A stretch of 64,000 nt of DNA from an uncultured bacterium (GCA_963827235.1 CAWHAE010000009.1:1088001-1152000), one strand, 5' to 3'; numbered from the stretch's first letter, positions 16,999 through 34,995 are shown. A program made the numbers and translations. The notes: generated by a model not told the origin, from the letters alone.

Positions 16999-17472
16999 AA
17001 TATAGATGTGTGGAGAGTGTAAGCATATAGCACGCGAAGAGTTGTCCGCAGGGCGCACGGTAGCTAGGTGAGTGGGGGGGGGTTGGGTATATGGGGCTGC
17101 TTACGTGCGTCTGGGGGGGCGTGGCCGGCGTGCTCGGTGGCGTCGGACGTTGCCCATGCTGCCCAGGTGACGGAGCACACGTCGACCTGGCATGCGTACC
17201 TCAGGTATGCGAAGTCAGGGCTGTGGACAGCCTCAACGTTGAGGGGTGGCCCGGCTAGCGTCGCCGGCTGCGTGAACGTCACGCGCTCGCGCAGCCAGCC
17301 AACGCTCCCGTGTGCGGGGCGGGACGCCGCGCTGGCAGTCGGACGTCCACACCACGACTCTAAGGCACCGCCGCAATCTTGTCAGATGCCTGATGGAAGG
17401 TCTTTTGGGGCCATTCGGCCCATGACGGCGCCCGGCTATTTTGGAACGCATAAGCAATGGAACATTGCGCTC

Positions 17473-17965
17473 TCAGGCGGCCCGGATCTGCCCTAGCTCG
17501 AGGTGCGTTATCAGACGGTCGAGCTCGTCATCGGACAGGGCCGCAAGCTCGGTCGGCGTTAGGGTCACCTGCACCTGTGGCGCGACGACTGGGATATCCA
17601 AGCCCCAGAGCCGGCTGCGCCGCTCGCTGATGCGCAGCGCACGGTCGATGGCGCGCAACTTGCGATTCGGGGTCGTCCGACTGGAGGTCGGCCTGCAACT
17701 TGAGCAAATAGTTGTCGAGACGTGTATCTTCAAGCGCGCGCCGCAGGGCGGTCTCCTGGTTTGTCAGTTTGGCCAGTTCGCCGAGGGCCGTCTTGTCGTC
17801 GCGGAACACGGTTCCTAGGCCGGTGCCCAGCGACTCGGCGATGTCGCGGTAGCTGACGCCGGCGGCGCGATACTTGAGCACTTGGAGCCGGCGATAGGCG
17901 GCGCGCTCCGGCTGCCCGGCTGGCTGGTTCTTCGGCTGTCGATCGCTGATTCTCGAGTCATCCAT
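17473..17965 (-). CDS. HTH protein resembling a terminase small subunit (frameshift ~17660)
   Basis: ERAAYRRLQVLKYRAAGVSYRDIAESLG...ALEDTRLDNYL joined to AIDRALRISERRSRLWGLDIP...LAALSDDELDRLI; typical TerS-like HTH architecture. Confidence 0.6.
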
Positions 17966-18002
17966 GGTAATCCTCCTCTGATCGGTCTACTAACCAACGC
18001 CT

Positions 18003-18043
18003 GCCGCCCGTCCGGAAGTTTGCCCAGCGCCCGGACGGGCGGC
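18003..18043 (-). terminator. 13-bp GC stem-loop between the coiled-coil gene and the terS-like gene
   Basis: GCCGCCCGTCCGG / CCGGACGGGCGGC perfect inverted repeat; no clear U tract. Confidence 0.45.
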
Positions 18044-18055
18044 GGTGTCTAGCCG

Positions 18056-31679: not shown

Positions 31680-31903
31680 GCTTGCCCCCTCCTCATGCCT
31701 GCTCTTCCGCCTCCATTAAGCCATACTGAGCACAGCAGGTCTCAGCGTTACCCGCGAACTAATGCGTGTCTGCAAACGAGTGCGCAAGAATGCCGGAAAG
31801 TCCTCGCGCGTCACGCGGGGATTGTGGTCGACGAGTGACCGGCGCCGTTGGGGGTGGCTCGGGGGGGATTGGCGCGGTGGAATGCGTAGACCGGTCACGC
31901 AGT

Positions 31904-33649
31904 TTACGATAGGCCGGTCCCCGCCGGCGGGACAACTCCCACCAGCCCAGCCTTCTTGCGCGCAAGGTACCGTCGCATGGCTTCGCGGTGAAGTTCCCGC
32001 GGCGTCTTCGGGTAGGCCGGGCTCTGGACGTCAGGGCCGAGCTCAATCTGCCCTGCATCGATGAGGGCCTGCACGGGCTCGTTCCACTCAACCTCGGCTC
32101 GCAGCCATGTGGACCTGGTCGCGGGAATTCGCTCGGTGATGGTCGCCGACTTCACGAGCTTGAGCACAAGGCTGCGCAGCTCGGCCTCCATGTTCTCTTG
32201 CACCAGGCCGTCGATCACGGTCGCGAGGTCGATCCTGCTGAACTCCGCGTGCAGTTGTTTCGCATCCAGCACAGATGGCGGGGATGGCGGGAGCGCTGCT
32301 AGTTGGCGCTCGGCCTCAAGCACTCGGTCGGATAGCTCTTTGCTCAGGTCACGGTAAGCCGCAAGCTCTGCCGGGCTCGGGTCATCAGCCAACATGGCGA
32401 AACGTCGGACATGACGTCGCATAGCCTCCTTGGCAGCTTCCAGCCGGCGCTGGAGCGCGGGTCTCGGGTTCGGCGTGGTCTCGATGGGTGCCGTCACCCT
32501 GGACAGGTTCCACTGCCGGAAGTGCAATCGCTTGACCTGTGCTAGCAGGGCCAGGTGTGCCGGCGCCGCCGCATACATGTGCTGCTTGCACACCGTCTCG
32601 CCATTCACATGGGGCAGGCACGCGTAGCTTGCAGACCGGGTGTTCCCGTCCGCGTGACGCATGATGACCATGCGGCCGCGGCAGCGCGAGCATCGCAGTA
32701 TTCCGGCCCCTAGTGGGATAGGTCCCGGCAGCTTCGTGCGTACGGGATTCAAGTTCGCCGCTGCCAGCCGCTCCTGTACACGCTTAAACGTCTCTGGATC
32801 CACGAGCGGCTCATGTCCAGCCGGGATCACGAACTCGCTTCCTGGCTCACTCGTCTCGAACGTGCCCAAGCGCTCCCGATTGTACCTCAACGCCCCCATG
32901 TATACGGGATTCGACAGCACGTAGTGGATGCTATCTGTCCTCCACGCCTTGCCCTTGCTTGACTTCGGCAGTGCCGGATCACTGTTCGCCCAGCGTGCGA
33001 GCGTGCGCAGGCTCCAGCCGCCCGCAGCGTACCGTTCGAATAGCTCCGTCACGAACGACGCGGCGGGCTCGTCACGGGTGAGCACCCCTGCTTGATACCG
33101 CCCGCTCGTGCCGCCGAGGCGTTCGCTGTACTTCAAGATGTAGCCGACCGGCACGATTCCGTGATGTTTACCTTCCCGCACACTCCGCTCCATCGCCGGT
33201 CTCACCCGCTTTGCTAGCTGGCGGCTGTATTCCTCACCAAGTCCAGCCCGAATGAACCTCATTAGCCCAGGCTCTTCGCGGCCTTCCTTCACGCTGATGA
33301 AGGGGACCCCCAGGCGCTCAAACTCACGCGCTCGGGTCACCCACTCGCCACCATCGCGGCCAAGGCGATCAAACATGTAGCACAGCACCGCGCCCACTTC
33401 GCCGCGTCGCACGGCACCAAGTACCCGCTGATAGCCCTCACGTGAAACGTGGTGCCCACTTTCGGCGTCACGTTCCACCACTACTAGATCATAGTCCTCG
33501 GCAGCCGCGAACGCGCGGATCGCTTCCTCCTGGACTTCTGGACTGTAGCCTTCGGTTTGCTTCTCGGTGGACACTCGGATATAGCCGGCCGCTGGAACGG
33601 GACCGACCACCGTCCTCAGTATCGGTCGCCTTGCTGGTGCTGCCATCAT
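31904..33649 (-). CDS. Large serine recombinase (integrase)
   Basis: YIRVSTEKQ catalytic Ser, FDRLGR, PVGY recombinase domain, CSRC...YAC...C zinc ribbon and coiled coil; intact 581 aa. Confidence 0.95.
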   Translation of the reverse strand: MMAAPARRPILRTVVGPVPAAGYIRVSTEKQTEGYSPEVQEEAIRAFAAAEDYDLVVVERDAESGHHVSREGYQRVLGAVRRGEVGAVLCYMFDRLGRDGGEWVTRAREFERLGVPFISVKEGREEPGLMRFIRAGLGEEYSRQLAKRVRPAMERSVREGKHHGIVPVGYILKYSERLGGTSGRYQAGVLTRDEPAASFVTELFERYAAGGWSLRTLARWANSDPALPKSSKGKAWRTDSIHYVLSNPVYMGALRYNRERLGTFETSEPGSEFVIPAGHEPLVDPETFKRVQERLAAANLNPVRTKLPGPIPLGAGILRCSRCRGRMVIMRHADGNTRSASYACLPHVNGETVCKQHMYAAAPAHLALLAQVKRLHFRQWNLSRVTAPIETTPNPRPALQRRLEAAKEAMRRHVRRFAMLADDPSPAELAAYRDLSKELSDRVLEAERQLAALPPSPPSVLDAKQLHAEFSRIDLATVIDGLVQENMEAELRSLVLKLVKSATITERIPATRSTWLRAEVEWNEPVQALIDAGQIELGPDVQSPAYPKTPRELHREAMRRYLARKKAGLVGVVPPAGTGLS

Positions 33650-33714
33650 GCTCTCCTTCAGAGTTCTGTATCCCTATATTCATTATACTCTTAACTAGAT
33701 AAATGAGCAATAGT

Positions 33715-34995
33715 GAGCTGTCGGCCCACATTGAAGCCTGGCTGCTCAACATCTGCCGGTACACCGGCGGCACCATGATCAAGGCGGCTCCGACGCTCCG
33801 TCCCCAGGCACTGATCAGCAGGCATCGTCTCCTGGACGTGCTCGACAATTCGTTTAACCGTGGACACGTGCGCAGCGGGCAGGATGCGATCGAGCTAGGG
33901 CGCGCCCGCGCCCGCTTTCTGTCCGCTGCGCCGGAGAGCAACGTGGTCGGGGGCACCGCCGATCTGCTGCTGGAGCTCGACGAGGCGCAGGACCTCGAAG
34001 AAGACAAGGTTCAGCGCGAATTCCGGCCGATGGCAAGCTCGACCAACGCGGCCATCGTGCTCTATGGCACGGCGTGGGACGCCGCAAATCCGCTCGAGCG
34101 CCAGAAGCAGGTCAATCTGGCTCTCCAGCGGCGCGATGGCATACGGCGACACTTCGAATACGACTGGCAGGCCCTGGCCGAGACGTCGCCCGCTTACCGT
34201 GCCTTCGTAGAAGGCGAGATCGCGCGGCTGGGCGCGGACCATCCCATCGTGCGCACGCAGTACCTTCTGCAGACGCTCGAGGACGTCGGCCGGCTATTCA
34301 CACCCGCCATGCGGGCGCTGCTGCAGGGCGGCCACGGGTGCCTGCCCGCGGGGGTGGCTGGAGAAGCATACGTGGCGGGAGTCGACGTGGCCGGCCAGGA
34401 TGCCGAAGCCATGCCCGGGATGCTGGCGCCGGGGACGCCGGGCGGCGGCCGCGACAGCACGGTGACCACGATCGCGCGCCTGCTCTGGACGGACGACCTC
34501 GAGCCCTCGCTTGAGGTGGTGCAACACTATCACTGGTCCGGAGCTGACTACCCGACGCAGCACCATGCCCTCCGACACCTGCTCGGCGAGGTCTTTCCCT
34601 GCAGCCGCATCGTGGTAGACGCCACCGGTCTGGGTGCCGGCGTCGCCTCCTGGCTCGCCGGCGTCATGGGCGGCGAAGTGGTGGAGTCGTTCGTCTTCAC
34701 GGCACCGTCCAAATCCCGCCTGGGATTCACGCTGCTGGCCATGGCAGGCACCGGTCGTTGCCGCATCTATAAACAGGACGGCAGCGCTGCCAGGTGCAGG
34801 CTTCAACAGGAGATCGAGTCGGCGCGCTACGAGCTGGCCGCGAACGAACAGATGCGTTTCTTCGTGCCGGACAGCGAGGGGCACGACGACTTTCTGATCA
34901 GCTTGGCTCTGTGCTGCTATGCGGCGACGATCGCTCCGCCGCCACCAAGCAGCGCCGTTATTCCGCCGCGCTTGGGAAAGTGGCAGGCGTGGTGA
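33715..34995 (+). CDS. terL: Terminase large subunit, 3' part (rest of ATPase plus RNase H-like nuclease)
   Basis: ELSAHIEAWLL..., Walker B LLELDEAQD, motif III YGTAW, nuclease YVAGVDVAG, RDST, VVDATGLG and HDDFLISLAL. Confidence 0.9.
   Translation, partial: ELSAHIEAWLLNICRYTGGTMIKAAPTLRPQALISRHRLLDVLDNSFNRGHVRSGQDAIELGRARARFLSAAPESNVVGGTADLLLELDEAQDLEEDKVQREFRPMASSTNAAIVLYGTAWDAANPLERQKQVNLALQRRDGIRRHFEYDWQALAETSPAYRAFVEGEIARLGADHPIVRTQYLLQTLEDVGRLFTPAMRALLQGGHGCLPAGVAGEAYVAGVDVAGQDAEAMPGMLAPGTPGGGRDSTVTTIARLLWTDDLEPSLEVVQHYHWSGADYPTQHHALRHLLGEVFPCSRIVVDATGLGAGVASWLAGVMGGEVVESFVFTAPSKSRLGFTLLAMAGTGRCRIYKQDGSAARCRLQQEIESARYELAANEQMRFFVPDSEGHDDFLISLALCCYAATIAPPPPSSAVIPPRLGKWQAW

Follow-up and report, generated by a model that had tools for sequence, protein, structure and literature searches.

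Large serine recombinases are carried by several mobile elements that interrupt genes and restore them on excision, such as SPbeta in spsM, skin in sigK, and the fdxN element with XisF, and by the phiRv1-type prophage-like elements of Mycobacterium, which insert in coding sequences or repeats. To our knowledge, phage satellites have been well mapped in a few cultured groups and hardly in uncultured high-GC lineages. The closest published parallel to the locus described here is provided by the Extracellular Prophage-Inducing Particles (EPIPs), reported in a preprint as satellites of a Mycolicibacterium prophage (PMC12822802). The locus lies in G000, an 8-Mb metagenome-assembled genome of an uncultured bacterium (65% GC, 21 contigs), and the window denotes the whole 64,000-nucleotide stretch analyzed (G000:C9:1088001-1152000). 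Within it, a 16.7-kb element with an intact large serine recombinase splits a predicted terminase large subunit (TerL) gene inside the Walker-A motif, and a diverged sister element in another genome of the genus occupies the same crossover dinucleotide in the opposite orientation. With roughly even confidence, the element is read as belonging to a satellite-like family of islands borne by recombinases and aimed at a TerL gene, with this copy in decay.

Open reading frames (ORFs) were picked by third-position GC (GC3) without a gene finder, and 34-42 of them were scanned against Pfam, PHROGs, and NCBIfam. Every confident ORF called in this way between 17.0 and 33.7 kb was on the minus strand. 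The element, its recombinase, and the two parts of the interrupted gene are located as follows:

16999-33714, minus strand: inserted element, 16,716 bp between two GA cores, with the empty site present in G003 and G004
16997-16998, no strand: attL core, crossover dinucleotide GA, from the junction alignment
33715-33716, no strand: attR core, crossover dinucleotide GA, 66 bp upstream of the recombinase start codon
16775-17005, plus strand: N-terminal fragment of the TerL-like target gene (76-aa ORF), ending in the Walker-A motif
33703-34995, plus strand: C-terminal 430 aa of the TerL-like target gene, with Walker B and the nuclease domain
31904-33649, minus strand: large serine recombinase, 581 aa, intact (Pfam Resolvase 6e-26, Recombinase 9e-19, and Zn_ribbon_recom 3e-4; phrog_95 6e-77)

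In G003 and G004, which together with G001 belong to the same genus as G000, the two TerL parts are contiguous and the intact gene reads through the junction, placing the break inside the Walker-A motif. Conceptual removal of 16999-33716 restored a 500-aa frame whose alignment to the G003 protein (69% identity) covered 480 aa in a single block without gaps. The N-terminal fragment matched the N-termini of intact homologues in G003, G004, G008, G039, G120, and G234, its last codons and stop being supplied by the element. As expected of a serine integrase, attL and attR share a 2-bp crossover and attB is empty in other genomes. The two halves are both on the plus strand in colinear order, so an inversion was rejected as the origin of the split gene. 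The tRNA scan of the 64-kb window returned none, so that a tRNA attachment site is not in question, and Rfam gave no match at E<=0.1 on 15-36 kb. The original prediction, made from the DNA alone, had given exact coordinates for the element, and its view of a discrete, capsid-less element mobilized by a recombinase held; its text had missed the TerL-like gene split by the insertion.

From its Walker A/B ATPase motifs and RNaseH-like nuclease domain, the interrupted gene is predicted to encode a TerL. The Walker A, Walker B, and nuclease aspartate motifs were invariant in five intact homologues of the target gene, Terminase_6C was found in all four of the homologues scanned (E 1e-5 to 2e-4), and all three hits at E<=1 in a PDB profile search with these homologues were TerL nuclease domains (5tge, 5m1f; best E 1.7e-5). 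The C-terminal part in the window gave weak matches to TerL PHROGs. The C-part query also detected the target TerL in 138 of 401 sampled genomes of the phylum, a tally that includes G000 and the unpublished G018 and G055. These homologues were ~42-51% identical, mostly single copy, and distributed in families all with or all without the gene, genomes of 0.9-1.9 Mb included; a portal and adaptor follow it in G234, and it stands among ordinary genes in G008 and G120. The target TerL may be a domesticated or very old phage gene. Among the C-part hits with an open frame of <=452 aa, which were those checked for interruption, no further interrupted copy was found: the G015 copy runs off a contig edge, and in G072 the gene is contiguous at both of its locations.

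The recombinase domains bear out the integrase call of the original prediction. Residue S26, in the motif around residues 22-26, was invariant in 14 aligned homologues, and the best NCBIfam match was XisF at far under its cut-off (95 versus 375 bits). Thirty relatives were found at E<=1e-40 among 8000 candidates scored, the closest being 73%, 63%, 57%, and 56% identical, and the metagenome scan yielded 16 loci. The single-protein scan of IMG/VR was empty and the alignment scan returned 45 loci, all just 27-28% identical; one genome per species gave one irrelevant locus (27%), and at E<=1e-60 the recombinase occurred in G000 and G001 only among the 401 phylum genomes. In locus L056, a 42%-identical recombinase adjoins an intact TerL-like gene. 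A second large serine recombinase gene is present in G000 (C9:431045-432706), 34-62% identical in pieces and in several frames, with no other gene of the element beside it.

The G001 relative, whose recombinase is 58% identical, interrupts the same gene: the TerL C-part lies at C8:252217-253488 and the N-part at 268687-268911, with a 15.2-kb insert between them. It uses the same dinucleotide and site as the G000 element and is in the opposite orientation. The att arms of the two elements correspond, the recombinase-proximal arms beginning ACTATT and the distal arms ending CTATATT, and on the recombinase strand G001 has GA as its core and G000 has TC, the reverse complement. The central dinucleotide sets the polarity of serine-integrase integration (PMC3642061), and reverse-complement cores in oppositely oriented elements are what this rule predicts. 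Beyond the recombinase, the two elements have in common only a portion of the helicase, an Xis-like N-terminus of 22 aa, and a single short non-coding stretch:

24128-24175, no strand: 48-nt stretch with a stem-loop, 94% identical to the G001 element (L044 3666-3714)

In both elements this stretch lies between a plus-strand gene and a leftward operon, and it is unique in the G000 genome and without an Rfam match. It is a candidate regulatory site between divergent genes. The 94% identity was kept between elements with almost no other DNA similarity. A contig end in G000 (C16:1200-2920) also matches the distal genes of the G001 element, in fragments of 70% identity, and carries part of the 48-nt stretch and, at the start of the contig, a 51%-identical fragment of orf162, a DNA-binding protein of the window element. 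By these matches, the C16 end is another, incomplete representative of the element family in G000.

The cargo of the G001 element comprises a Xis-type helix-turn-helix (HTH) protein, an intact 709-aa primase-helicase, methyltransferase-like and radical-SAM proteins, a protein in the position of the terminase small subunit (TerS), a TerL encoded by two ORFs (phrog_7579 2e-58 and phrog_27743 5e-44), and a PIN protein. It is complete between its att sites and gave no match to a tape measure protein (TMP), portal, or capsid in the family scans. Two further relatives were seen in part only. The metagenome locus L046 (recombinase 57% identical) carries Xis, an O-like Rep, TerS (phrog_6299), a two-ORF TerL, two unknown ORFs, and a methyltransferase, at an insertion site different from that of the G000 element; no portal or capsid was matched there, and no TMP within the 10 kb seen downstream of the recombinase. 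The viral contig L118 (IMG/VR) has the order recombinase, 780-aa protein, homologue of the window TerS-like protein, two-ORF TerL, and minor tail proteins, again with no portal or capsid match.

The G001-type TerL was identified in 18 IMG/VR loci, five of which were scanned against the families (90 ORFs, with the 18 ORFs of L116 excluded). L112 represents a full phage, encoding a portal, a capsid, and connectors; in L118, L111, L117, and L124, no portal or capsid was matched at E<=1e-5 over the 3.4-9.3 kb past TerL. L117 carries, further on, a second integrase fragment and a 1279-aa TMP and may represent two adjacent elements. By rough ORF sizes, a proxy only, about a third of the loci with this TerL have a portal-sized ORF after it. 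In total, the two-ORF TerL (ATPase phrog_7579 plus nuclease phrog_27743) was recorded at 20 loci (L044, L046, and L111-L128), ranging from a full phage to 11-20-kb contigs without a portal or capsid match.

The part of the window element between attL and the 48-nt stretch contains the replication, regulatory, and TerS-like genes:

17064-17282, minus strand: orf72, last gene before attL, no family match
17473-17965, minus strand: TerS-like gene, frameshifted, with the N-terminal HTH in 17528-17965 and the C-terminal helix motif in the frame of 17473-17733
18056-18829, minus strand: orf257, coiled-coil orphan, no family match
18826-19290, minus strand: orf154, ORF call with no assigned function
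19562-19654, no strand: iteron cluster, nine copies of CTGCCA/TGGCAG, just 3' of the helicase
19662-21172, minus strand: RepA-like AAA_25 helicase with C-terminal winged HTH and two frameshifts (AAA_25 2.6e-16 and 1.1e-12)
21293-21571, minus strand: excisionase-type HTH_17 protein (HTH_17 2e-11; TIGR01764 3e-11)
21572-22498, minus strand: orf308, orphan, predicted all-helical
22605-23093, minus strand: orf162, predicted DNA-binding protein with Xis-like N-terminus and winged-helix C-terminus (HTH_IclR 3e-6 and related families)
23161-24198, minus strand: orf68 and orf188, ORF calls of unassigned function, first genes of the leftward operon

The predicted AAA_25 helicase is present but spread over three reading frames (20351-21172, 19579-20358, and 19662-20015); relative to the intact 709-aa homologue in G001, the frame changes at ~20339-20352 with no residues lost. 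The iteron cluster noted in the original prediction was confirmed, with nine hexamers versus 0.1 expected per 116 bp and at most two in any other 116-bp stretch of the window, and is a candidate replication origin. Of the three predicted Xis-like HTHs, only the protein at 21293-21571 exceeded its curated cut-off, and it is a candidate directionality factor or regulator; the N-termini of 22605-23093 and 30985-31608 stayed sub-threshold. We know of no common family for the directionality factors of serine integrases.

The TerS-like gene matched HTH_23 (Pfam, 5e-5) and, in two frames, phrog_645 (7.5e-9 and 5e-4). Its frame changes near 17650, and the layout is the same as in the intact 192-aa homologue of L118, which is 43% identical and directly upstream of TerL. 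The family contains 5932 proteins at E<=0.001, and hhalign of its profile against the TerS-position proteins of G001, L046, L117, L111, and L112 gave a probability of 91.5% (E 8e-7, 120 columns). Comparison of the profile with PDB returned generic LuxR-type HTH hits only, and tblastn of the protein against 50,697 phage records returned no match. The window copy of the gene is broken, with no TerL after it. The earlier "TerS-like" label was accepted at the level of profile and position, for a gene that is frameshifted.

Two of the ORFs flagged in the original prediction, orf257 and orf308, were orphans without a significant fold match. The homologue search with orf257 retrieved only itself among 5.8 billion proteins; its single-sequence AlphaFold (AF2) model (pLDDT 70) is a long helical hairpin with zero Foldseek hits at E<=0.001 against viral models. 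The search with orf308 also retrieved only itself, and its single-sequence model was unusable (pLDDT 41). In the ESM Atlas, both had unnamed clusters only, with recognition under a useful level. Nothing in these models, weak as single-sequence predictions, suggests an HK97 fold.

In the favored explanation, a large serine recombinase inserted a 16.7-kb phage-derived island into the Walker-A codons of the TerL that belongs to a prophage-like cluster conserved in the genus. The family backbone consists of the integrase, a Xis-type HTH, a replication protein with its origin, and TerS, plus the two-ORF TerL in the relatives. As no portal or capsid was found in any family member, the family is plausibly built like phage satellites and would depend on other phages for its virions. 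Because the helicase and TerS-like genes are frameshifted, the present-day function of this copy is doubtful; it appears to be decaying and is probably no longer able to replicate or direct packaging. With an intact recombinase gene and two intact junctions, excision is conceivable, and it would restore the TerL frame exactly.

Alternatively, the satellite could be functional today, its frameshifts being assembly errors or bypassed, with TerS redirecting a helper terminase, the TMP described below altering helper tails, and the seat in the TerL of a helper-like cluster coupling excision to helper activity. The intact recombinase and att sites and the presence of iterons fit this proposal, as do one TerS frameshift at a CCCC run, a 698-aa TMP frame that is intact with a strong coding signal (GC3 0.83), and the existence of EPIP satellites with a serine integrase, TerS, and TMP (PMC12822802). 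It is nevertheless improbable: the first helicase frameshift is outside a homopolymer, three frameshifts in 16.7 kb compare with none evident in 25 kb of adjacent host genes, and in the would-be helper cluster of G000 almost the whole capsid gene is missing and four genes are split.

Between the regulatory region and the recombinase, the window element contains a segment with tail genes:

24314-24332, no strand: 19-nt perfect inverted repeat, left copy, one of only two copies in the 8-Mb genome
24372-25052, plus strand: possible gene with a zinc ribbon, weak Pfam matches, coding status uncertain
25656-26417, minus strand: 253-aa protein resembling TMP C-termini (best match to the C-terminal part of a TMP PHROG 4e-13)
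26539-28487, minus strand: orf76, orf86, orf339 (with 27-aa repeats), and orf169, downstream of the TMP and of unassigned function
28484-30580, minus strand: TMP of TP901 type, 698-aa open frame (PhageMin_Tail 7e-23; TIGR01760 7e-24)
30460-31608, minus strand: two paralogous ORFs of 169 and 207 aa upstream of the TMP (paralogy E 2e-5)
31845-31863, no strand: 19-nt perfect inverted repeat, right copy, bracketing the TMP segment with the left copy

The TP901-type TMP proposed in the original prediction survived the profile tests, at scores above the curated cut-offs (TIGR01760 84.6 bits versus 28.8; PhageMin_Tail 82 bits versus 33.2). Of the 19 PHROG families it matched, 18 bear tail or tape measure names. 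By tblastn it matched 46 phage records, and 23 of the 25 matches listed were annotated tape measure, including TP901-1. Its IMG/VR relatives (three loci, 32-46% identical) are in ordinary siphovirus tail modules; in L008 and L009, the order is capsid, connectors, tail tube, chaperone, an 840-871-aa TMP, and then the distal tail genes. In the window, no tail-tube, chaperone, Dit, or Tal match was found among the TMP neighbors in the three libraries, so that the TMP does not sit in a tail module.

The second predicted TMP-like gene (25656-26417) also stood. The 3' end of the 871-aa TMP gene in L009 is matched by 25656-26417 and its 5' part by 28484-30580. One giant broken TMP gene over 25.6-30.6 kb was considered as a possibility. 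However, the 698-aa ORF already ends in a match to the C-terminal part of the tail-protein PHROG phrog_1204, and the ends of the ORFs show the 4-nt overlap seen in coupled genes. The 27-aa repeats of orf339 are spaced 79-81 nt with one copy out of frame, the 207-aa ORF (30985-31608) starts with a Xis-HTH-like fragment, and 24.3-25.6 kb has no clean ORFs.

The TMP segment is probably a secondary acquisition. Its GC3 of 0.81-0.91 is host-like, compared with 0.70-0.78 for the backbone, and together with the flanking 19-nt inverted repeat this led to its being read as foreign. The TMP is not shared by the family: the complete G001 element lacks it, and none was matched in the 10 kb of L046 seen downstream of the recombinase. 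The part of the original prediction that proposed a distinct family hijacking tails via the TMP is therefore not supported.

The same segment is among the arguments for a rival reading, a deletion remnant of a complete temperate siphovirus with a serine integrase. That phage would once have had a terminase, portal, capsid, and full tail module, and through internal deletions and rearrangements it would have been reduced to its integrase, replication genes, TerS, and part of the tail module. The TMP is a genuine virion gene whose nearest viral relatives, L008 and L009, are in full tail modules, the gene order is not colinear with G001, and a Xis-HTH-like fragment is fused to orf207; the several frameshifts, the stretch of 24.3-25.6 kb, and the occurrence of the relatives' split-TerL type in the full phage L112 point the same way. 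Yet G001, complete between its att sites, and L046 are small or portal-less after TerL, and the remnant would need independent similar deletions. Also, no frame-independent match, either by tblastn with portal and capsid queries or in the family scans, pointed to a capsid, portal, tail-tube, or lysis pseudogene, and both att junctions are intact. Full prophages with head and tail genes among the relatives had been named in advance as the sign of a remnant; instead, the 15.2-kb G001 element and L046 have an int-xis-rep-TerS-TerL build. A remnant is thus somewhat unlikely.

Within the window element, the predicted lack of a capsid, portal, TerL, tail-tube, or lysis gene was upheld in the three libraries. 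Neither a complete prophage nor a capsid-forming phage-inducible chromosomal island (PICI) was indicated, as no major capsid, portal, or TerL was found in these libraries or by tblastn with two portal and two capsid queries. The element instead has the build of PICIs and Staphylococcus aureus pathogenicity islands (SaPIs), namely, an integrase, a replication module with an origin, and TerS in the ~10-18 kb size class, with no virion structural genes detected except the TMP calls; its integrase belongs to the serine class, and both the helicase gene and the TerS gene are broken.

A non-viral integrative mobilizable element, composed of a recombinase, RepA-type helicase, and origin with captured phage scraps and no relation to virions, would fit the orphan status of most ORFs. 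AAA_25 RepA-like helicases and serine recombinases are indeed common on non-phage islands. This origin is very improbable, as Pfam returned no relaxase, coupling protein, type IV secretion, or other transfer gene among 42 ORFs, which also leaves no sign of an integrative and conjugative element, and the TerS family and the TerS-TerL pairs of the relatives link the backbone to DNA packaging.

Several observations weigh against the satellite-like family favored here. Only two or three relatives were seen, with L046 and L118 partial, so a family without a capsid is drawn from few examples. The same TerL type occurs in a full phage with portal, capsid, and connectors (L112 and L113), and the window element is without its own TerL, unlike its relatives. 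Several ORFs are orphans with poor single-sequence structure models, and the absence of capsid and portal comes from family libraries only. The helper phage is hypothetical. Moreover, what look like frameshifts could reflect consensus errors where the metagenome assembly covers a strain-variable region, and the split genes of the neighboring cluster fit real decay or a locally poor consensus alike. Since ~20 host genes in 39-64 kb have full-length Pfam matches and the G000 genome contains 175 open frames of at least 1000 aa, an assembly that is error-ridden throughout is unlikely.

The target TerL closes a cluster that is conserved in the genus and starts with a 720-aa protease-capsid fusion in G004 and G001. 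In the window, this phage-like cluster spans 4996-16630 and runs from the protease-capsid fusion through tail-fiber-like proteins and a Flp-like small protein to TerL. Its capsid gene is reduced in G000 to the last ~65-73 codons (~4996-5217), and four genes are split relative to G004, where G001 yields single matches; the prophage-like cluster is intact in G001 and G004. From these comparisons, the resident cluster seems to have decayed in G000. A 782-aa GHL15/CBM protein (10750-13098) with paralogues at other genome sites is also inserted in the G000 cluster.

To the right of the interrupted gene is a 901-aa sedolisin-type protease (35288-37993) with a pro-kumamolisin activation domain, S8 domain, and C-terminal repeats, which has several paralogues at other sites of G000, and a full-length serpin (41146-42546) is encoded a few kb from it. 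The left side, covering window positions 3-2135 and the 20 kb to the left of the window (L001), has defense-island-like genes including a SbcC/SbcD-like pair, an AAA_15 ATPase, a cytosine-5 DNA methylase, and a 710-aa protein with a RuvB-like AAA domain.

Of the new observations, the most interesting is the insertion in the terminase P-loop common to two elements in opposite orientations. No published account of an element seated in a terminase gene turned up in a literature search restricted to open-access papers. The locus offers a concrete satellite-like case with base-exact ends from an uncultured high-GC lineage, and the same 2-bp crossover, used by two diverged elements in opposite orientations, illustrates the central-dinucleotide rule in nature and supplies an attB/attP pair that could readily be tested. 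If the family is truly helper-dependent, insertion in the helper's own terminase would be an unusual tie between the fates of satellite and helper; otherwise, the locus still shows clearly how mobile elements nest and decay within a cryptic prophage. A broader model, doubtful as a whole, would have capsid-less serine-recombinase islands (int, xis, rep with iterons, TerS, and sometimes TerL or tail parts) home to the terminase Walker-A codons of a vertically kept cluster, in either orientation depending on the attP dinucleotide. Such hyperparasites would silence the packaging motor while integrated and return it on excision, coupling their mobilization to that of the helper, and members would swap "hijack modules" such as TerL in G001 and the TMP in G000.

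Compared with known systems, the element resembles phiRv1, SPbeta, skin, and the fdxN element in having a large serine recombinase and a phage-derived insert in a coding sequence that precise excision would rebuild. It differs from SPbeta, skin, and the fdxN element in that the interrupted gene is the terminase of another phage-derived cluster rather than a host developmental gene, and no sign of regulated excision was seen here. As described for Bxb1 and phiC31 (PMC3642061), quasi-symmetric att arms surround a 2-bp core, the att logic proposed here being deduced from junction sequences alone. PICIs and SaPIs, by the abstract of PMC10085698 and common background, share the size class, int, a Xis-type HTH, a Rep with an adjacent iteron origin, TerS, and the lack of capsid and tail-tube genes. 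The element differs in its serine rather than tyrosine integrase, its TMP, its TerL-bearing relatives, and its location inside a phage gene instead of a chromosomal att site, and no Stl-like master repressor or capsid-size redirection gene was recognized in the family scans. The EPIPs are likewise small and capsid-poor, with a serine integrase, TerS, an HTH protein, and a TMP (PMC12822802), which lowers the novelty first claimed for the element. They are 11 kb in size with reported head-to-tail adaptor, stopper, and scaffolding genes (PMC12822802), none of which was detected here; compared by description only, the element is 16.7 kb, carries a RepA-type helicase and iterons, belongs to another phylum-level host group, and lies inside a TerL gene.

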